From positions 1 through 8,325 of the IMG/VR virus record IMGVR_UViG_2609460221_000006: 8,325 bases of DNA. One strand, given 5' to 3'. Below, one piece after another: positions 1-8,325 of this stretch; the first letter of the stretch is position 1; the number at the start of each line of letters is the position of its first letter. Under the pieces are notes generated by a model that worked only from the letters and a program-made list of their open reading frames with translations, did not search any database and had not been told where the DNA came from. The translations under genes and the position numbers were made by a program. This stretch comes from a virus. Lineage: Duplodnaviria; Heunggongvirae; Uroviricota; Caudoviricetes.

Positions 1-907
1 GTGCATCATCTAACGGGATTTCATCGGTCATAATGGCAGATTGCGCTTCGCGTGATTGCTTAAGCCACCATTTAATGGTGTCCCGATCAATGACTCCGCC
101 AGCAGTTTCCAGATCGATAGTCTTACTAAATTCCGGTCCCATATCTCCGGTTTGCGGATCGAAAAATATTGCACCTATTGAGATAATCGGGGCATCTGGA
201 TTTTTTCCCATGGTTTCAAGGTCGATCATTAGATGGTCACACGTCCCGCTGGTGGATGTGCCTTTATGATGACCGTTCACCTTAACTGAGTGATCTGTCG
301 CCTCGCCAGTTTCACTATCGCTATCGTGATGCTGATTGCCGCCAGGGTTCTCCTTGTGTGGATGTTCAGTGCCTTCCATTTCCTCCGGATCATTTTCCTG
401 AACTTCAACCTGATTCTCTTCATTGAATGTTTCCTGGTATGTTGCGTCGCCCATCACCGCGCCACAATCAGGGCAGTTGCCGCCGCCGGTCTGACCGCAG
501 GCGGTGCAGATCTTTTCCGGTTCCTGTTGCACTACTGGTTCAGGTTGTTTCGTTTCTGGCTCGTTTTGTAACGCATTTGGGCTGTTTTGTTCCGCTTTCT
601 GGCCGTTCTGTTCCGTTTCTTGCTGGTTCTGGTTCACAGAATCGCGGGTTTCCATCCCCTTGACCCATTTCGGATCATTCGGGTCGCTAATCCCTGCAAC
701 AAATTCTCCGCGAGAGGCCGCAAGCAACTTATCGGCGTCAGGCTGGCTGATATTGGCTGCCTGCATAATTTTGTTTACTTCGTCAGCGGTAACTTTTACC
801 TGATTAACCGGATCTATCTGTGCCTGAGTATCCAGCGATTGCGTGTCCTGGCGATGTTCAGTTGTATTCGGCTCCATTGCTTCAGTCGTTGCCTGTTCAT
901 CTGCCAT
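1..907 (-). CDS. recE: RecE-family exonuclease VIII, downstream portion (partial, runs off the window; separated from the N-terminal ORF by a frameshift)
   Basis: Minus-strand frame open from ATG 907 to position 1, translating [30 protein letters not shown]...[30 protein letters not shown]...[16 protein letters not shown]... The [10 protein letters not shown] / [13 protein letters not shown] blocks match what I recall of the middle of E. coli RecE. The same frame is open upstream across the stop of the 936-2144 ORF. Confidence 0.6.
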
Positions 908-935
908 TGCGTCAGACGGTTGTGATTTTTCCTCA

Positions 936-2144
936 TTAATTTTTTTCTTCTTCTGTTTCGCGTTCAGCAGCCAGTTCGCGGTTAACTTCTTCCAGGATAT
1001 CTTTTTCCGGTGTATGTCGTGCAGCAGCGAGAGTTTCCTCGGTAGGGTTCTCGTGATCAGTTTCCGTCAAATAGGCGTTGATATACCCCTGAAGGCGTCC
1101 CGGGTAGTGATAAAATTCAGGGTGTGCGCTTCGGATAAGTGCAAAAATAGCGGCGCGGGAATAATCCAGGATACCCGGGATTGCGCGAAGTGCTGCGGAC
1201 CATTCTTTGAACGGACTTTCTTTCTTCCGGACGACTTCTTTTGCGCGACGATAAACGCTGCCCGGAATTTCATAAATATTAAAATCCATCGGAAGTGTGG
1301 CCGCTGCAATCTCCACATCCAGCGTATCGAAGGTGTGTACTAAATTCGGATTGCGATCGGTTTTGTTCCCTCCACCGGCATTAGCACCGGAAGCCGTGCG
1401 GGTGATGCGTGAAACACGATTTCCTTTCATCCACTCTTTTGTCAGCAGACCGCGATCGGTGTAGTCAGCGCCCAGGTATGCTTCGAAAAAAGCAGTCATC
1501 AGTCCCAGGTCTGAATTACCAGGATTAGGGAAAACTTTGTCCGTGTCACGAACCAGTTTGTGGAGATCGCGAATTTCCAGCGGTTCGAGTTGCGCTGCTT
1601 TATTTGAGATGGCCAGCGCGGTAACGGCGGGAAGTTTTTCATCCTGTGCGTTATGTAATGTGCGCAGTTCGTCCCGCGAAACGTGTGTGATCGGTTTTTC
1701 GCTGCCGTGCTGTGCCAGCCATCGAACAGGCAGAATCTGACCTGAAACCGGCAGGAGCATGTTCTCCTCAATCTCAGCCATGTCTTCGCCGTTGACGTTG
1801 GTATTGTCAGTGCTGGCTGGTTTATCCTGAACAGAGGGCGAGGGCGCGATAAGTACCATTGTGATACCATCTTCACCGCCCTTTTCGTATCGGTTGCAGA
1901 ATTCGGTATCAAACACGCCTTCCGGAGGAAGGTCATTCACAACGGGTAAATGGACGCGAACAGGTTTTTTAAAATCCTCTTTGTCAAATCCGGCATCGTC
2001 CATTGCGACAACACCGCGTGATATTGCAACCGATAATTTTTTTGCTGTGCGCCAGTAAAAACCGCCTTTAATTCCAAGACGTTTTCTGATTTTGTCATTT
2101 TTGGCTTCGTAATATAGTGCAATTTCTTCTTTATCAGTGCTCAT
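936..2144 (-). CDS. recE: RecE-family exonuclease VIII, N-terminal 402 aa (ends at TAA 936-938, probably prematurely)
   Basis: 402-aa ORF with blocks [111 protein letters not shown], recalled as the RecE N-terminal region. GAGG Shine-Dalgarno 8 nt upstream of ATG 2144. Confidence 0.8.
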
Positions 2145-2221
2145 TGATAAACCTCATTACAGATTTAAGGGTGAACAAATCCCTGCCATTGCTGGCATAT
2201 AAAAATGAAACCGGATATTAA

Positions 2222-2425
2222 TTACGGTGCTGTTTTAAGCCCCGCCGGGATTTCGTTATTGTCCATGTGAATAACTTTATCGACCGGATAACAGTTGCCG
2301 GGAATTTTCTGTTCCGCTGCGGCAGCCATGCATTCTTTCATTGAGTTGTACATGCCGGTGATTGCATCAAGCGACTCACCAGTATTGAGATGTACAGTCA
2401 GAATGAGTACGAATAATGTGTTCAT
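2222..2425 (-). CDS. Small hydrophobic protein, 67 aa, YdfD-like by position (tentative)
   Basis: ATG at 2425 overlaps the dicB stop (ATGA coupling); GGAGA Shine-Dalgarno upstream. N-terminal hydrophobic segment MNTLFVLILTVHL. Its position directly after dicB corresponds to ydfD in the Qin dicB operon; sequence identity to YdfD is not verified. Confidence 0.5.
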   Translation of the reverse strand: MNTLFVLILTVHLNTGESLDAITGMYNSMKECMAAAAEQKIPGNCYPVDKVIHMDNNEIPAGLKTAP

Positions 2426-2610
2426 CGCCACTCTCCGAAAATACCGAGTTTAAGAAGGGCAATTCTGGAGAGTATGGAATTGTCATTCAGCAGGTAGGGT
2501 TCATATTTTCTCATATTGATTGCATCCTCGGTGAAATCCCTGTTACTGAGCAGAACACCAATATTAAAGCACCCGTCAGACGTATTAACGTTTGGTAGTG
2601 ACGTTTCCAT
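2422..2610 (-). CDS. dicB: Cell-division inhibitor DicB homologue, 62 aa
   Basis: Translation METSLPNVNTSDGCFNIGVLLSNRDFTEDAINMRKYEPYLL... matches the recalled DicB signature (LPNVNTSEGCFEIGV...FTEDAINKRK) at the same 62-aa length. GAGGA Shine-Dalgarno 7 nt upstream of ATG 2610; lies just downstream of DicF as in Qin. The ORF track's longer 97-aa version (to 2715) has no support for its N-terminal extension. Confidence 0.8.
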   Translation of the reverse strand: METSLPNVNTSDGCFNIGVLLSNRDFTEDAINMRKYEPYLLNDNSILSRIALLKLGIFGEWR

Positions 2611-2779
2611 TATCGCGTCCTCAACAATGAATTTTGTGATGCGGTGCCTGGTGCCTCCAGGTGACGTTAACCAGTTAACAATTAACGCCGGATACAGAGA
2701 ATCCACCCATAACACTGTTTTTGGTTTTAACTGTTCCGCGTGCGCTCAGCCGCATTCACCACATCACAAAATTCACTTT

Positions 2780-2822
2780 AAAAAGGGCGGCAGAGCAGTC
2801 ACGGAGTAAAACTGATACCGCC
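2780..2822 (-). terminator. Intrinsic terminator hairpin forming the 3' end of DicF
   Basis: Minus strand GGCGGTATCAG...CTGCTCTGCCGCC stem-loop followed by a run of 5 U (plus-strand A 2780-2784). Probably leaky, since dicB lies downstream in the same operon. Confidence 0.6.
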
Positions 2823-2837
2823 AAAAGTCACCAGAAA
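2785..2837 (-). ncRNA. dicF: DicF small RNA (Hfq-dependent ftsZ-targeting sRNA processed from the dicB operon transcript)
   Basis: Minus-strand sequence TTTCTGGTGACTTTTGGCGGTATCAGTTTTACTCCGTGACTGCTCTGCCGCCC followed by TTTTT, matching the 53-nt DicF as I recall it apart from one possible substitution. Ends in a GGCGG...CCGCC hairpin plus U-tract. The 5' end is processed, so it is approximate. Confidence 0.85.
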
Positions 2838-3172
2838 ATTGATAACAGAGGGCGTTGCAGCGGAGTTGTCACTTAAGCGTATGGTCAACCTGACAACCCG
2901 GTGTCCTCAACGGGGGAAGGAATAACCCCGCCATACTTACCGCCGCGCCATTTCGCGGATTGCCACAACCGGAAGCGCACGGTCGACGAAAATTTAACGA
3001 CAGGCTATCTATGAACCAGCTACCTCGCCGTGCGCTTTCGCGTTATGGTCTGACTTTTCAGGGAAATATCCTTTCAGTAAACTGTCAGTGCCGGATGCTC
3101 ACCCGTGTCCGGCGCACGCACTCCACCTCACCCGTGGAGAACTCCTTAATCACCAACCCTCAGGAGGGTGAA

Positions 3173-3448
3173 ATGTCGACTGAAAATGATGAAATCATTA
3201 ACTCCCTGATACGCCAGATTAATAATTTTGATAAAGCATTGCAACATGCTGCGGCGCGTAGTGATATAACTCTTTTAGCAATTTCATTTCTTGCATCTGT
3301 TATGGATAAAAATGAAGTCGTACGACAGAGTCTTGTTGATTATATCGACTCGCTTCAACCCGGCACTTTCAATCATGAGAGCTTCAATCATGAGAAAGAG
3401 CATGTTAAGTCTGTAATTAATTCTCTTATTTTGAATCAAAAGAATTAA
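3173..3448 (+). CDS. Hypothetical protein, 91 aa, in an AT-rich island (unknown function)
   Basis: Strong Shine-Dalgarno CAGGAGGGTGAA directly before ATG 3173. The in-frame upstream part of the ORF-track call (2960-3172) is GC-rich with no RBS and is rejected. Base composition drops sharply at 3173. Predicted mildly acidic and helical, with an FNHES-FNHE tandem repeat; no motif I recognise. Confidence 0.6.
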   Translation: MSTENDEIINSLIRQINNFDKALQHAAARSDITLLAISFLASVMDKNEVVRQSLVDYIDSLQPGTFNHESFNHEKEHVKSVINSLILNQKN

Positions 3449-3746
3449 TGCTTTTTGTTGCAAAGTAATTTTCAAGGGGTTCTATTCGAATCCCTTTCTT
3501 TTTCATTAACAAGCCAAACCCCTTATCAATGATGTCCATTAGATCCAGGAAGTATTTTTCATGTAAATCCTGGTTATCAGAGAGCTGCTTCTCTTCGTAC
3601 AGCCCGATAAAGGCTCGGCGTACGTTACCGGATATATTGTCGATGGTTTCTTTTTCTACGGTACTCAGGTCAAGAGTCGCCAGTTGAGAGCGAACCACAT
3701 TCGATGCCATTTCCTGGAATGGTACTGGTAAATCTTTAAATTCCAT
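3426..3746 (-). CDS. Hypothetical protein, 106 aa, in the AT-rich island (unknown function)
   Basis: ATG 3746 is preceded by GAGGT at good spacing. An alternative ATG at 3758 overlaps the upstream gene's stop (TGATG) and gives 110 aa. Co-oriented with the dicB operon, convergent with 3173-3448 and overlapping its 3' end by 23 bp. Acidic, helical, no recognisable catalytic motif. Confidence 0.6.
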   Translation of the reverse strand: MEFKDLPVPFQEMASNVVRSQLATLDLSTVEKETIDNISGNVRRAFIGLYEEKQLSDNQDLHEKYFLDLMDIIDKGFGLLMKKKGIRIEPLENYFATKSINSFDSK

Positions 3747-3757
3747 CGTCAACCTCA

Positions 3758-3910
3758 TCAGTCAGTGTTTCTGGTTAACCAGCGACGCGCGCCAGCTTCA
3801 GTTTTAAACGTTTTGCTTCTGGTATATGTCATCGCGGTAAACGTGCCGTCCTGGTTGGGAAACACGCCGCATACCAGAGATTCGTTGTTGCCAAGCTCGA
3901 TAGTATCCAT
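3758..3910 (-). CDS. Small protein, 50 aa, YdfA-like (DUF1391-like, tentative); first gene of the leftward operon
   Basis: ATG 3910 has a GAGGT Shine-Dalgarno 5 nt upstream. The longest ORF starts at 3991 (77 aa) but with a weaker RBS. Product MDTIELGNNESLVCGVFPNQDGTFTAMTYTRSKTFKTEAGARRWL resembles, from memory, the ~51-aa YdfA that heads the Qin dicB operon. Confidence 0.5.
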   Translation of the reverse strand: MDTIELGNNESLVCGVFPNQDGTFTAMTYTRSKTFKTEAGARRWLTRNTD

Positions 3911-4091
3911 GCTGACCTCATTTCCCCTTAACGCCGGGGTAGCGGAACAAAAACCTGCTGCATAGTTATTAAAGTTGAACCCTGCCGTCATGTTCTTACG
4001 CCTCGGGCTGGCTACTTAACCCCTGACCACTGCCGGGTAACTCGAAGTATTGCCTGGCGTTCTGTGGGGCGGGGTGGGTTGATGAATGAAC

Positions 4092-4131
4092 AATACCACT
4101 ACTATTTAATTATGTAAATAGCAGTGCTATT
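4092..4131. promoter_or_regulatory. Leftward (PL-like) operator region: two copies of a 16-bp AAATAG-N4-G(C/G)TATT site in opposite orientations
   Basis: 4116-4131 is AAATAGCAGTGCTATT on the plus strand; 4092-4107 reads AAATAGTAGTGGTATT on the minus strand. Together they form a 30-bp near-palindrome (4097-4126). The same motif occurs twice in the repressor/cro intergenic region. Lies upstream of the leftward operon, with TTTACA / TATTGT-like hexamers nearby on the minus strand. Confidence 0.45.
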
Positions 4132-4142
4132 ATCGTGGCAAG

Positions 4143-4164
4143 AAAAAAAACCACCCGAAGGTGG
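4143..4164 (-). terminator. Rho-independent terminator ending the paaR2-paaA2-parE2 operon
   Basis: Minus strand CCACC-TTCG-GGTGG hairpin immediately followed by 8 U (plus-strand A 4143-4150), 17 nt downstream of the parE stop. Confidence 0.7.
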
Positions 4165-4180
4165 TTGTTGACAGGAAGGA

Positions 4181-4471
4181 TTAACAGGTTTTGTTTGGAT
4201 ACTGTCTTCGTGAGTGAACTACATTTACGATCTCGATGTTAGATGCTGTTACTCGGTAAAGTATTATGTAGTTAGGATGAGTCACTATCTCACGAAGACT
4301 TGGAACTCTTTCGCTCGGTGGGTACAGATAAGGGTGTTCAGTAAGTGACAAAACTGATGTTTCAATGCGTATTTTTAGTCTACGTGCAGCGGGAGGGTTT
4401 TCCTTAGCAATATAGGCTACGATCTGACGTAAATCATCACGTGCAGAAGGTAGCCATAAAATGGGCAGCAT
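4181..4471 (-). CDS. parE2: ParE/RelE-family type II toxin, 96 aa (ParE2-like)
   Basis: Translation MLPILWLPSARDDLRQIVAYIAKENPPAARRL...REIVTHPNYIILYRV...IEIVNVVHSRR shows the ParE/RelE pattern. Start overlaps the stop of the upstream antitoxin ORF, a typical toxin-antitoxin arrangement. Confidence 0.85.
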   Translation of the reverse strand: MLPILWLPSARDDLRQIVAYIAKENPPAARRLKIRIETSVLSLTEHPYLYPPSERVPSLREIVTHPNYIILYRVTASNIEIVNVVHSRRQYPNKTC

Positions 4472-4662
4472 TACTCACTCCTGTTCGTTGCAGCTAATTG
4501 AGCAATAAGGTTTTCCATTTCAGCCATTACTTCGTCATGTGGAATTGCAGGACGGGGATCTGAGAGGCTTGCTGCCACTTTGGTTCGCAACCATTCGTTA
4601 TAGCTGTTTTCTTGTTCGACTGTTTCAAATTCAGAAATTATCGGGGAAAGGGCTGTACTCAT
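4471..4662 (-). CDS. paaA2: Small antitoxin, 63 aa (PaaA2-like), partner of ParE2
   Basis: 63-aa acidic ORF immediately upstream of, and coupled to, the ParE gene. GAGGAGG Shine-Dalgarno 7 nt before ATG 4662. Size and context fit the PaaA2 antitoxin of the paaR2-paaA2-parE2 module described in E. coli O157:H7 prophages; the name is by synteny and recall. Confidence 0.7.
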   Translation of the reverse strand: MSTALSPIISEFETVEQENSYNEWLRTKVAASLSDPRPAIPHDEVMAEMENLIAQLAATNRSE

Positions 4663-4679
4663 GTTTTTACCTCCTCAGA

Positions 4680-5181
4680 TTAGGCGCGACGACCCTTTTG
4701 CGCAGCTAGCCATCGCGCAACGATTTCTTCAATTGATTCTTTTTTCTCCTTCATTTCCTTAAGCATTTTCTCTTTATCTTCTTTGGGGAAAGCCCTGAAC
4801 GTCTGGAGCAAATCCCGCTCCATGGGGTCTATATTAAACGGAAGTTCGTTTTCCGATTGTTCCATATCTGCAGATATAGTGACAACATTGTCCTCCCCAG
4901 ATTCTTGGGGATACATCCTTACAATTTGTAACAACTCGGCCATATCTGGTCTGATTGACTCGGGAGGAACTTGCAGCAACCCTGCGAACTTGATAACAGC
5001 CTCAAGATTTAAAGGTGTCTGACCATTTAGATAATGGCTTACAGCTCCCTGTGTCGAAAATCCCAGAATTTCTGCCGCACGCTCTTGGGTTAACCCTAGT
5101 TGAATTTTTTTTCGCCGTCCAGATTTCTTTCAGTCTCTGGGCGGCTTGCAGGTCGATCTCTGACAGGGATTTTCTTTTCAT
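4680..5181 (-). pseudogene. paaR2: Lambda cI-like HTH repressor (PaaR2-like), reading frame broken in an A8 run
   Basis: ATG 5181 with GAAGG Shine-Dalgarno gives MKRKSLSEIDLQAAQRLKEIWTAKK, then the frame is lost in the A8 run (plus-strand T 5105-5112). The -1 frame continues (KK)IQLGLTQERAAEILGFSTQGAVSHYLNGQTPLNLEAVIKFAGLLQVPPESIRPDM... to TAA 4680. The joined N-terminus closely resembles the lambda CI N-terminal domain ([27 protein letters not shown]...). The intact-frame tail is the 4680-4979 ORF in the track. Confidence 0.75.
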
Positions 5182-5288
5182 ACCTTCAATTCTAATAAGA
5201 TTATTAATCTCTTTGAAATAGTGATGCTATTTACTTTTAAAAATAACAATGCTATTAATGATCGTGATGACATCACATGAGGTGAACA
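5182..5288. promoter_or_regulatory. Divergent promoter/operator region between the cI-like and cro-like genes (PRM/PR analogue)
   Basis: Two direct copies of the 16-bp motif, AAATAGTGATGCTATT (5216-5231) and AAATAACAATGCTATT (5241-5256), 25 bp centre to centre. A 13-bp perfect palindrome GTGATGACATCAC (5264-5276) and TAATAA-GA-TTATTA (5193-5206). Candidate rightward promoter TTTACT-N17-TATTAA. GAGGTG Shine-Dalgarno before ATG 5289. Confidence 0.55.
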
Positions 5289-5564
5289 ATGAATCTTGGA
5301 GAATATTTGCATCATTCCGGTATAACTCAGAAGCATTTTGCTGAAATTGTTGGGGTAACCCAAGGGATGGTAAGCCATGTCATTACCGGACGGGCGAAAC
5401 TTACGGGGAAAAAAATTTTACGCTGGTGCGAAGCAACAGGCTGGATAGTAACTCCGCACGAGATTGATGGCAGTACTTATCCCAACCCAACCGACGGCTT
5501 ACCTGTCGAGTATCAGGCTAACACACAACCAGAGGCGGGGGTGATTCATGAAAATCAAGCATGA
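5289..5564 (+). CDS. ydaS: Cro-like HTH DNA-binding protein, 91 aa (YdaS-like)
   Basis: HTH segment ITQKHFAEIVGVTQGMVSHVITG. Divergent from the cI-like gene across an operator-rich spacer; Shine-Dalgarno GAGGTG at 5279-5284. Confidence 0.8.
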   Translation: MNLGEYLHHSGITQKHFAEIVGVTQGMVSHVITGRAKLTGKKILRWCEATGWIVTPHEIDGSTYPNPTDGLPVEYQANTQPEAGVIHENQA

Positions 5565-5584
5565 ACACATCCGCATGGCAATGA

Positions 5585-5974
5585 ATGCCTGGGCGCATCC
5601 GGACGGCGAAAAAAGTACCGGCTGCGAAAATTACCAAAGCGTATTTCGAGCTGGGAATGACGTTCCCGGAACTGTATGACGACAGCCATCCGGAAGCCCT
5701 GGCCCGTAATACCCAGAAAATTTTCCGTTGGCTGGATAAAGACACCCCTGATGCTGTTGAAAAAATGCAGGCTCTGTTACCGGCGATCGAAAAGGCGATG
5801 CCGCCTTTGCTGGTGGCCCGTATGCGCAGCCACAGTTCTGAATATTACCGTGAGATCGTCGAACGGAGGGATCGGCTGGTGAAGGATGTCGATGATTTTG
5901 TTGCGTCAGCGGTTGTTTTGTATGACCAGATGAATCGCGGCGGCCCGGCAGGGAATGCTGTGGTGATGCACTAA
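5585..5974 (+). CDS. ydaT: YdaT-like (CII-analogue) protein; longest intact frame shown, native start probably ATG 5548 with a frameshift in an A6 run
   Basis: The 129-aa ORF from ATG 5585 has no Shine-Dalgarno and begins right after an in-frame TGA. ATG 5548 has a strong GAGGCGGGGG RBS and overlaps the cro-like stop; it encodes MKIKHEHIRMAMNAWAHPDGEK and then leaves the frame at the A6 run 5609-5614. One A fewer would give a ~140-aa product, the size I recall for YdaT. The gene name is by synteny with Rac ydaS-ydaT. Confidence 0.6.
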   Translation: MPGRIRTAKKVPAAKITKAYFELGMTFPELYDDSHPEALARNTQKIFRWLDKDTPDAVEKMQALLPAIEKAMPPLLVARMRSHSSEYYREIVERRDRLVKDVDDFVASAVVLYDQMNRGGPAGNAVVMH

Positions 5975-5996
5975 AAGCACGGTGTTCGGGGGTTTT

Positions 5997-6959
5997 ATGA
6001 GCAGCAAGCTTCATGGTCTTGTCTGGGAAGGGTGCGCCTTCACCGGCATGATCTTATCCAGGGTGGCGGTTATGGCCCGTCTTGCAGACTACAGCAATGA
6101 CGAGGGCGTGTCATGGCCTGCCATTGAAACTATCCGGCGTCAGATCGGTGCAAGAAGTGAATCCACAGTGAAATCGGCTATTGCAGAACTGGCGAAAGAG
6201 GGCTGGCTGACGAAGGAAGAGCGTAAGGTCGGTGGGCGTAATGTAAGCAATATCTATCGGCTTAATGTGGAAAAACTCGAAGCAGCTGCGGCGGCGGCGC
6301 GTGAGTCATATAAACCGAAAAGAAAAATTAGCCCGGCAAAAAATGACCCGTTAACAGTTGACCCGTCAAATATTGCCCCCTCAACGGTTGACCCGTCAAA
6401 TTTTGATGGATCAACTGTTGATAAAAAACTGCCGATTAGGGGGGCGATGATTGACCCCGATCCGTCAGTATTAAAACCTGATCCGTCAGATAAAAGATCT
6501 TCTTGTCCGGACGCTTCGCAACCGGACCCGCAGACGGCTGAACAGGATTTTTTAACCCGACACCCTGACGCGGTTGTGTTCAGTGCGAAAAAACGCCAGT
6601 GGGGAAGTCAGGAAGATTTGGTGTGCGCACAGTGGATCTGGGGACGAATCGTGAGTCTTTACGAGCAGGCGGCCAGCTATGATGGCGAGATCACTAGACC
6701 GAAAGAACCCAACTGGACAGCATGGGCCAATGACGTTCGCACAATGCGGATGCTGGATGGCAGAACTCACAGACAAATTTGTGAAATGTTTGGGCGTCTC
6801 CAGCGGGATTCGTTCTGGGTAAAAAACATCATGAGTCCGGCAAAACTCCGGGAAAAATGGGATGAACTGGTTATCCGCCTGGGGCGTTCGCCTGCGCAGC
6901 GTTGCGTGAATCACATTTCTGAACCGGACACTGAAATACCGCCGGGATTCAGGGGGTGA
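5997..6959 (+). CDS. Replication initiator, lambda O analogue (YdaU-like), with origin iterons inside the gene
   Basis: 321-aa ORF from ATG 5997 (GGGGG upstream); GTG 5982 is an alternative start. N-terminal winged-helix-like region ...VSWPAIETIRRQIGARSESTVKSAIAELAKEGWL. The central coding region carries tandem DNA repeats that encode the repeated TVDPSN / DPS peptides. Sits between the cII-like gene and the DnaC-like loader. Confidence 0.7.
   Translation: MSSKLHGLVWEGCAFTGMILSRVAVMARLADYSNDEGVSWPAIETIRRQIGARSESTVKSAIAELAKEGWLTKEERKVGGRNVSNIYRLNVEKLEAAAAAARESYKPKRKISPAKNDPLTVDPSNIAPSTVDPSNFDGSTVDKKLPIRGAMIDPDPSVLKPDPSDKRSSCPDASQPDPQTAEQDFLTRHPDAVVFSAKKRQWGSQEDLVCAQWIWGRIVSLYEQAASYDGEITRPKEPNWTAWANDVRTMRMLDGRTHRQICEMFGRLQRDSFWVKNIMSPAKLREKWDELVIRLGRSPAQRCVNHISEPDTEIPPGFRG
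6356..6489. repeat. Iteron cluster: putative replication origin within the O-like gene
   Basis: AGTTGACCCGTCAAAT at 6356-6371 and GGTTGACCCGTCAAAT at 6386-6401 (each containing the inverted pair TTGAC/GTCAA), TGTTGATAAAAAA at 6417-6429, and GATCCGTCAG at 6458-6467 and 6480-6489. Iterons inside the initiator gene are the lambda ori arrangement. Confidence 0.55.
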
Positions 6960-6965
6960 CGTGTC

Positions 6966-7712
6966 ATGAAAAACATTGCGGCAGTTGGGGTTCTTGAACG
7001 TATTCGCAGACTTGCACCACAGGGGTCGGTTCCACCGTACCGGACGGTGGAGGAGTGGCGGGAATGGCAACTTGCTGAAGGACGAAAACGCAGCGAGGAG
7101 ATTAACCGCCAGAATCGCCAGTTGCGGGTGGAAAAAATCCTGAATCGTTCGGGCATCCAGCCTCTGCACAGCAAATGCTCGTTTGCAAATTATCAGGTGC
7201 AGAACGACGGGCAAAAATACGCGCTGAGCCAGGCCAAATCCATAGCTGACGAACTGATGACCGGGTGCACGAATTTTGTGTTCAGCGGTAAAACCGGCAC
7301 CGGGAAAAATCACCTTGCAGCGGCGATGGGCAACCGGCTGATGGTGAAGGGGCGCAGCGTGATTATCGTCACCGTGTCTGACGTCATGAGCGTGTTGCAT
7401 GACAGCTACGACAACGGCAAATCCGGGGAAAAATTTTTACAGGAGCTTTGCGGGGTTGATTTGCTGGTCCTGGATGAAATAGGCGTTCAGCGGGAGACGA
7501 AAAACGAGCAGGTGGTATTGCACCAGATAATTGATCGCCGGACAGCATCACTGTGCAGTGTCGGGATGTTAACAAACCTGAATCATGCCGCAATGAGTAC
7601 GCTTCTTGGTGAGAGGATTATGGACCGCATGACCATGAACGGTGGTCGATGGGTGACGTTTAACTGGGATAGCTGGCGTCCAAATGTCAGCAATATGAGG
7701 GTTGTGAAGTAA
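6966..7712 (+). CDS. ydaV: DnaC-like helicase loader / IstB-like AAA+ ATPase, 248 aa (YdaV-like)
   Basis: Walker A FSGKTGTGKNHLAAAMG and Walker B DLLVLDEIG. AGGGGG Shine-Dalgarno before ATG 6966, which follows the O-like stop by 6 nt. Confidence 0.85.
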   Translation: MKNIAAVGVLERIRRLAPQGSVPPYRTVEEWREWQLAEGRKRSEEINRQNRQLRVEKILNRSGIQPLHSKCSFANYQVQNDGQKYALSQAKSIADELMTGCTNFVFSGKTGTGKNHLAAAMGNRLMVKGRSVIIVTVSDVMSVLHDSYDNGKSGEKFLQELCGVDLLVLDEIGVQRETKNEQVVLHQIIDRRTASLCSVGMLTNLNHAAMSTLLGERIMDRMTMNGGRWVTFNWDSWRPNVSNMRVVK

Positions 7713-7733
7713 TTTTGTCCGGAGGAAATTTTA

Positions 7734-8325
7734 ATGGAAACCGTATCTGACGCACTGAAAGCACTGAAAAAAGCCTCTTCACATGTGGTGGCAGCTCGCC
7801 TTGGAATCAGTCGTGAAGAGGCTGTCAACGAGCTGTGGGAACTCAAAAGAAAAGGCGTCGTTGATAAAACTGGTCACACCTGGTTTCTGGCTGGCGAAGG
7901 TGAATCCCGGGTAACCGAAGAGCGGCCAGTAAAATCTGAAGCACAGGATATGCTGACCGGGGAGGTCGAACAAAAAGTTACCGCAGACATGATGATTGAG
8001 TTTATCGGTCAGGATGGGGCTAAAACGTGTGAGGAACTGGCGGGTAAGTTCAGTGTCAGTACTCGCAAGGTTGCTTCCACGCTGGCGGTGGTAACCGCAA
8101 CGGGGCGGCTGGCACGCGTTAATCAGAACGGTAAATTTCGTTACTGCATGCCGGGCGATAATTTACCAGCAGAGCCGAAAGCCGCGCTGGTAACGGAAAG
8201 TGATGGTAAGGCCTTTCCTCAGCCAGCAGGTGCTGCGTTACCAGTCCGGGAAGCCGCAACACAGGAAGAAATTAAAACAGAAACTGTGGCGGACATTGTG
8301 CAGCCGTTGCCATCGTTTACCGAAA
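7734..8325 (+). CDS. Hypothetical prophage protein, partial (runs off the right edge), with two winged-helix-like segments
   Basis: GGAGGA Shine-Dalgarno 7 nt before ATG 7734; frame open to the window end (197 codons), so it is absent from the ORF track. Translation METVSDALKALKKASSHVVAARLGISREEAVNELWELKRKGVVDK...CEELAGKFSVSTRKVASTLAVVTATGRLARV. Corresponds in position to the gene after ydaV in Rac. Confidence 0.6.
   Translation, partial: METVSDALKALKKASSHVVAARLGISREEAVNELWELKRKGVVDKTGHTWFLAGEGESRVTEERPVKSEAQDMLTGEVEQKVTADMMIEFIGQDGAKTCEELAGKFSVSTRKVASTLAVVTATGRLARVNQNGKFRYCMPGDNLPAEPKAALVTESDGKAFPQPAGAALPVREAATQEEIKTETVADIVQPLPSFTE

Follow-up and report, generated by a model that had tools for sequence, protein, structure and literature searches.

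Gene content and organization of the immunity region

The window, by which we mean the entire stretch of 8,325 nucleotides analyzed here (IMG/VR record IMGVR_UViG_2609460221_000006, positions 1 to 8,325), contains the immunity region of an E. coli lambdoid (Rac/CP-933P-like) prophage. The order of its elements is PL/OL, a parE-like gene, a paaA-like gene, a CI-like repressor gene, OR, a cro/ydaS-like gene, ydaT, and replication genes, the last comprising an O-like gene and a DnaC-like gene rightward of ydaT. Between positions 4150 and 6000, the window is 99.9% identical to prophages in the chromosomes of O104:H4 2009EL-2071 and further strains, and its OR was found in 72 of the 5,426 complete E. 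coli genomes, among them strains of the O104:H4 outbreak lineage. The features of the central part are as follows:

4149-4166, minus strand: intrinsic terminator that ends the repressor-paaA-parE operon; conserved in relatives
4181-4471, minus strand: ParE-family toxin gene (PF05016, E 7e-18; ParE2 structure 5cw7, E 5e-36)
4471-4662, minus strand: PaaA2-family antitoxin gene (PF21217, E 1e-21)
4680-5181, minus strand: CI-like/PaaR-type repressor gene (166 aa in intact alleles such as WP_000824162.1; HTH_3)
5289-5564, plus strand: cro/ydaS-like HTH gene (91 aa, WP_001048458.1; HTH_3; ribosome-binding site GAGGTG at 5279-5284)
5541-5558, no strand: YdaT OM-type inverted repeat GTGATTCATGAAAATCAA (one mismatch to TTGATT-N6-AATCAA)
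5548-5974, plus strand: ydaT, the CII analogue (139/140 residues identical to PDB 8bt1, the crystallised YdaT of CP-933P)

The genes for the repressor, the PaaA antitoxin, and the ParE toxin (the latter about 65% identical to ParE2) are contiguous and followed by the terminator, thus forming a three-gene operon. The repressor and cro genes are divergent, with their ATG codons at 5181 (minus strand) and 5289 (plus strand), respectively, and 107 bp between them. The N-terminal domain of the repressor matches lambda CI structures (E 1e-9) and does not align with the DNA-binding domain of PaaR2, the corresponding repressor of prophage CP-933P, with which the C-terminal segment of about 44 aa shares 54.5% identity. 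A Pfam search of the repressor returned HTH_3 and HTH_31 only; no S24 autopeptidase domain was found, the C terminus being of the PaaR type, so that there is no obvious route to RecA-mediated induction. The DNA-binding domain of the repressor and Cro are paralogs (35% identity, E 1e-7) with the recognition helix TQGxVSH in common, which fits both proteins reading the same half-sites. The inverted repeat GTGATTCATGAAAATCAA overlaps both the end of cro and the beginning of ydaT and is homologous to the CP-933P site TTGATTCATGAAAATCAA. YdaT binds TTGATT-N6-AATCAA at the ydaS/ydaT junction, as footprinted in CP-933P only (Prolic-Kalinsek et al. 2023, PMC9986795).

Compared with locus L001 and all close relatives, the window carries single-base (+1) insertions in A/T homopolymers at 4143, 5103-5112, and 5609-5614. 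The insertion near 5103-5112 splits the repressor gene into open reading frames 5002-5181 and 4680-4979, and that in the A run near 5609-5614 splits ydaT into 5548-5679 and 5585-5974. These insertions are probably (long-read) sequencing errors; if real, they would make pseudogenes of the repressor gene and ydaT and would leave this copy of the prophage without a functional repressor. At the left end, positions 1-2198 reach only 90% identity with the RecE-like exonuclease gene of L001, with several indels, and the longest open reading frame there encodes 402 aa (936-2144, minus strand), whereas the L001 annotation gives 812 aa. The window has a mosaic and possibly disrupted left arm.

The proposed right operator and its promoters

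A reading of the sequence alone had proposed a lambdoid rightward operator upstream of the cro-like gene, consisting of two direct 16-bp sites 25 bp apart that flank the promoter hexamers, and of a separate 13-bp palindrome. The two sites, AAATAGTGATGCTATT (5216-5231) and AAATAACAATGCTATT (5241-5256), are present base for base; the spacing of 25 bp, from start to start, is correct, and 13 of the 16 positions are identical. Both sites are therefore real, but their description as direct repeats has to be amended, since each of them is itself an inverted repeat of the form AATAG-N5-CTATT, which makes them dyad-symmetric sites rather than oriented repeats. Similarly, the sites overlap the hexamers of the rightward promoter instead of flanking them. 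The resulting annotation of the intergenic region is the following:

5189-5217, minus strand: PRM-like promoter (-35 TTCAAA at 5217-5212, 17-bp spacer, -10 TAGAAT at 5194-5189; from the promoter scan)
5194-5208: candidate weak OR3-equivalent AATAAGATTATTAAT, in the PRM spacer, 23 bp from OR2
5217-5231, no strand: OR2-equivalent operator AATAGTGATGCTATT (weight matrix 21.2 bits)
5230-5258, plus strand: PR-like promoter (-35 TTTACT at 5230-5235, 17-bp spacer, TG at 5250-5251, -10 TATTAA at 5253-5258)
5242-5256, no strand: OR1-equivalent operator AATAACAATGCTATT (weight matrix 21.6 bits)

The motif stands out clearly from the background of the window. With at most one mismatch, AATAGNNNNNCTATT has 5 matches in the window where 0.20 are expected, and none of 200 dinucleotide shuffles reached 5. 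Four of these matches form two pairs with a spacing of 25 bp, 4092/4117 and 5217/5242, situated at two regulatory regions. In a weight matrix that was built from these four sites themselves, they score between 19.7 and 23.7 bits, the next best position of the window reaches 11.6 bits, and the highest value in 200 shuffles was 19.1 bits. The fifth match, AATATTGCACCTATT (165-179, one mismatch), was set aside as a chance occurrence, with a score of 7.9 bits that lies under the median shuffled maximum of 10.3 bits; it is located in the region homologous to the annotated exonuclease gene of L001.

The sites and the promoters are closely interlocked. The right half-site of OR1 is the source of the TGn-TATT in the extended -10 element of PR, while OR2 overlaps the -35 hexamer of PR by 2 nt and has 1 nt (5217) in common with that of PRM. 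PR is absent from the output of the consensus promoter scan, because position 6 of its -10 hexamer is not T, and was assigned by reading the sequence together with its conservation; transcription is predicted to start near 5265. The repressor ATG (5181) begins 7-8 nt past the -10 element of PRM, with no usable Shine-Dalgarno spacing. Given this short distance, the repressor mRNA made from PRM is probably leaderless. Leaderless transcripts have been shown experimentally for paaR2 of CP-933P and also for lambda cI (PMC8630535).

In the weight-matrix scan, the third candidate site at 5194-5208 obtained 6.5 bits, which is not significant within the window, so that the switch may have just two strong right operators. 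The syntenic sequences of relatives are nearer to the consensus (AATAAGATTGCTAAT in L002 and AATAGTATTGCTAAT in L130), and the weak site inside PRM may play the role of OR3. The PRM spacer (5193-5210) also contains two overlapping perfect palindromes, TAATAAGATTATTA (5193-5206) and AGATTATTAATCT (5198-5210), which coincide with this candidate and are preserved in neither the L002 nor the L130 group.

A second pair of putative operators at a leftward promoter

The other pair of motif matches is placed just beyond the terminator of the repressor-paaA-parE operon, at a promoter that reads leftward:

2785-2836, minus strand: DicF small RNA (Rfam RF00039, 75.8 bits), downstream of the PL-like promoter
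3758-3991, minus strand: DUF1391 (ydfA-like) gene, in the leftward operon under PL
4090-4118, minus strand: PL-like promoter (TTTACA, 17-bp spacer, TG-n-TATTGT; start expected near 4083)
4092-4106, no strand: OL1-equivalent operator AATACCACTACTATT (19.7 bits), overlapping the extended -10 element of PL
4117-4131, no strand: OL2-equivalent operator AATAGCAGTGCTATT (23.7 bits), overlapping the -35 element of PL

At PR and PL alike, the distal site covers the -35 element and the proximal site supplies the extended -10 element, and alignment of the 40-nt blocks of OR/PR and OL/PL gives the common pattern AATAG..TGCTATTTAC....AAATA...TG.TATT. The position of DicF fits a division-inhibition operon of the type ydfA-like...dicF(-dicB) under the control of OL.

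Conservation of the putative operator sites

The conservation of the region was assessed on 54 loci of the window's Cro type, which reduce to 22 distinct OR sequences. Across these variants, the half-sites of the two operators and the promoter hexamers are 96-100% conserved and the centers of the sites drift. The left and right half-sites of OR1 are conserved at 100% and 96%, respectively, and those of OR2 at 100% and 98%, with the central 5 nt of OR2 averaging only 60%; the corresponding values for PR are 98.5% (-35) and 97.7% (-10), and both PRM hexamers are conserved at 100%. The OL sites are conserved with the same pattern in 25 OL variants.

A different reading of these data would be that AATAG-N5-CTATT has been retained only as a set of promoter elements in AT-rich DNA (UP-like, -35, and extended -10 elements) and does not represent operators. 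The sites do overlap the -35 and -10 elements of PR and PL, and their conservation could partly reflect promoter function. However, the left half-sites AATAG (5217-5221) and AATAA (5242-5246) lie outside the PR hexamers and are nevertheless 100% conserved, whereas the 5 nt between the half-sites drift. Furthermore, binding by dimeric HTH proteins predicts the features seen here, namely, dyad-symmetric sites with a constant 25-bp spacing at each of two promoters, and the same half-sites accompany homologous DNA-binding domains in otherwise unrelated phages. We therefore consider a purely promoter-based origin of the motif highly improbable. The divergent CI-like and cro genes, the overlap with PR, the duplicate at PL, and the invariant half-sites all support the rightward operator of lambdoid type that had been proposed.

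The association of these half-sites with a particular DNA-binding domain extends beyond the close relatives. L130 and L132, in which Cro is only 66% identical, retain the three sites at unchanged positions (AATAGTATTGCTAAT, AATAGCTTCGTTATT, and AATAACTATGTTATT); the architecture of their repressor is different, and the toxin is absent. The CI protein of the Stx2 phage F039 has a DNA-binding domain that is 52% identical to that of the window's repressor, with the recognition helix TQGAVS, and F039 carries AATAGCTAGACTATT over the -35 element of PR; Rac-SA53 carries GATAGTCTGACTATT at the equivalent place. A DNA search of the phage collection with window positions 4980-5560 gave no match, so that protein-level searches were needed. 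A scan for repressor relatives with one genome per species produced 249 pattern matches, none of which was confirmed, and was thus uninformative beyond prophages of the E. coli type.

The L130 and L132 repressors themselves (1671-2423 and 1671-2402 of the respective loci, both on the minus strand) have 243-250 aa and are encoded without paaA-parE. Besides the same CI-like DNA-binding domain as in the window, they contain another complete HTH domain, which belongs to a different PaaR-associated immunity type, as well as the C-terminal domain of PaaR, and look like two DNA-binding domains fused in one protein.

The palindrome at the predicted PR start

The third element that had been proposed is indeed found in the sequence:

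5264-5276, no strand: perfect palindrome GTGATGACATCAC (two 6-bp arms and a single central base), covering about +1 to +12 of the predicted PR transcript

The role that had been suggested for it, namely, a site for a second regulator such as the Cro-like or the YdaT-like protein, is not supported, as the palindrome is unconserved, is absent at PL, and does not exceed chance. In dinucleotide shuffles of the 107-bp intergenic region, a perfect 6+1+6 palindrome arises in 6.2% of cases and a perfect palindrome with a spacer of 0-4 in 22.7%, and 19 such palindromes occur within the window.

Three points can be cited for a true operator at this place, bound by a Cro/YdaS-like protein, YdaT, or a host factor: the palindrome forms a perfect 6+1+6 dyad around positions +1 to +12 of PR, its right arm ACATCAC is fairly conserved (88.7% in the 22 OR variants), and its half-site GTGAT resembles the left half (GTGATT) of the window's YdaT-type site. 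However, the palindrome is perfect in only 5 of the 22 variants (21 of the 54 loci), and its left arm is conserved at 63.5%, none of its columns being invariant; compensating changes are absent. That ACATCAC-ATGAGG is partly conserved can probably be ascribed to its role as the initial transcribed region and ribosome-binding site. Loci with a 100% identical Cro carry GTAATGACATCAC, the natural G5266A variant, in place of the palindrome, and its state does not follow the YdaT type across loci. PL has no counterpart, and the palindrome is missing from the CP-933P-type loci despite a YdaT that is 99% identical. YdaT was rejected as the binder, since its footprinted site has a 6-bp rather than a 1-bp spacer and is located at the ydaS/ydaT junction (PMC9986795), corresponding to 5541-5558 in the window, and since CP-933P does without the palindrome. 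A CRP-like site was discarded by inspection, as GTGA and TCAC are separated by 5 nt and not by the 6 nt of TGTGA-N6-TCACA. Taken together with a chance expectation of 6-23%, these observations make an operator for a second regulator unlikely.

A further reading that we consider improbable is that the palindrome represents a recent, lineage-specific extra operator confined to the O104:H4-type subgroup, for example a fourth site, specific for Cro or for a host factor, that fine-tunes the expression of cro-ydaT; were this the case, the switch would differ mechanistically from those of CP-933P and lambda. An action as RNA, in which a 5'-terminal hairpin stabilizes the cro mRNA or modulates access to the ribosome-binding site, is hardly credible: the minimum-energy fold does have a 5-bp stem and a 3-nt loop at the 5' end before GAGGTG, but at -5.1 kcal/mol it is weaker than the average shuffled control (-6.8 kcal/mol; z = +0.86), with equally good or better folds in 159 of 200 shuffles, the pairing is lost in relatives with no compensatory changes, and the predicted PR start falls inside the stem. 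Overall, the palindrome is most likely a fortuitous, lineage-specific accident and not a regulator site.

A model for the switch

The segment 5216-5256 is very probably the core OR of a lambda-like lysis/lysogeny switch in an E. coli prophage. In the model that we propose, OR1 and OR2 would be bound by dimers of the leftward-encoded repressor, with its lambda-CI-like HTH and PaaR-type C-terminal domain, and, by analogy, the same operators would also be bound by the Cro/YdaS-like protein. As OR1 lies over the extended -10 element of PR and OR2 over its -35 element, their occupancy would shut off transcription of cro, ydaT, and the replication genes. OR2, which abuts the -35 element of PRM, would be in a position to repress PR and perhaps to stimulate PRM, the promoter of the putative leaderless repressor-paaA-parE mRNA, an arrangement that would allow autoregulation. 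OL1 and OL2 would act through the identical two-site arrangement over the PL-like promoter of the ydfA-like...DicF operon. We infer the identity of the binding protein, the order of binding, the transcription starts, and any looping between OL and OR, whose sites are separated by 1,125 bp, whereas the preferences of repressor and Cro for individual sites are guesses. For CP-933P, the exact binding sequences could not be assigned by the authors despite their footprints (PMC8630535).

Comparison with lambda, F039, Rac-SA53, and 434

The window resembles lambda in its divergent repressor and cro genes, in dyad operators that follow one another at intervals of about 23-25 bp, overlapping PR and abutting PRM, in a matching OL set, in a repressor N-terminal domain homologous to CI, and in a probably leaderless repressor mRNA. 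It differs from lambda in that its operators are of 15 bp (AATAG-N5-CTATT) and not of the 17-bp TATCACCGCCAGTGGTA type, the S24 domain is lacking, the repressor gene is transcribed together with toxin and antitoxin genes, a third right operator is either weak or missing in this copy, and OL has two sites rather than three.

Also comparable are the CI/Cro modules of the Stx2-converting phages F039 / Lyz12581Vzw and of phage Rac-SA53 (dicA/dicC annotation), with 52-55% identity in the repressor DNA-binding domain and 50-53% in Cro. The TQGAVS helix is retained, and F039 and Rac-SA53 have the same half-sites over the PR -35 element; in contrast, the promoter-proximal site of these phages is more degenerate, the F039 CI has an S24 peptidase C-terminal domain, and F039 lacks paaA-parE. 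We found no published operator analysis for these phages.

The operator of phage 434 has 14 bp and a variable central region. By analogy only, the window's sites resemble operators of the 434/P22 type in being short dyads whose outer half-sites, but not the center (N5 here), are conserved; the sequence and the proteins differ.

Comparison with CP-933P

The closest described architecture is that of the CP-933P (Sp12) switch of E. coli O157:H7 (paaR2-paaA2-parE2 / ydaS-ydaT, with OR, OL, PRM933P, PR933P, and PL933P), in which PaaR2, YdaS, and YdaT are the analogues of CI, Cro, and CII (PMC8630535). Footprints of PaaR2 and of YdaS were obtained both between paaR2 and ydaS and in a PL region (Jurenas et al. 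2021, PMC8630535), and the YdaT site was footprinted by Prolic-Kalinsek et al. 2023 (PMC9986795). The CP-933P-type loci used for comparison, L007 and others, encode ParE2, and their PaaR2 starts with MQKKE as published.

The window shares with CP-933P the gene order, including a paaA-family antitoxin and a parE toxin downstream of the repressor, a 99% identical ydaT with an OM-type site at the cro/ydaT junction, and a short intergenic region (107 bp in the window, 97 bp in CP-933P) with divergent promoters and a probably leaderless repressor. Both also have another set of operators just past parE, at a promoter that reads leftward, and their repressors are homologous in the C-terminal segment of about 44 residues (54.5%). 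In contrast, the N-terminal DNA-binding domain of the window's repressor is lambda-CI-like and unrelated to that of PaaR2, and tblastn detected no similarity between the window's Cro and the YdaS of CP-933P. The operators diverge as well, being AATAG-N5-CTATT in the window and of the GTTTAGTAA / ACTAAAC type in CP-933P (ACTAAAC/TTTAGT at OR and OL of L007), and two strong right operators in the window stand against four inverted repeats, with three 'operators' described, in CP-933P. Since the repressor N-terminal domain, Cro, and the operators all differ, the window would have a different immunity specificity and would be a heteroimmune member of the same family. Judging from the alignments, its repressor is a domain-shuffled relative of PaaR2.

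To the right, the mosaic boundary with CP-933P coincides with the YdaT OM site (5541-5558). On the left, positions 4040-4085 (ACTCGAAGTATTGCC..GTTCTGTGGGGCGGGGTGGGTTG), directly left of OL, are nearly identical in heteroimmune CP-933P-type loci (L007); this identity marks the left boundary of the exchangeable immunity cassette.

The window thus represents an uncharacterised immunity specificity in a switch architecture already described for CP-933P. No operator study of the window's immunity type was recognized by title or abstract in the literature search, and the model of two OR and two OL sites provides a sequence-level description for a type that was not found described there. Prophages of this kind have the paaA-parE cassette and ydaT in common but exchange the repressor DNA-binding domain, cro, and the operators as a unit. 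This is helpful for annotating prophage immunity and for predicting cross-immunity; the accepted view of such switches is unchanged.

Among the ParE2-type loci, L055 and L066 possess tandem PaaR-type repressor genes upstream of paaA-parE, encoding a protein of 132 or 153 aa together with a PaaR2-like protein of 123 aa, which suggests nested or duplicated immunity modules.
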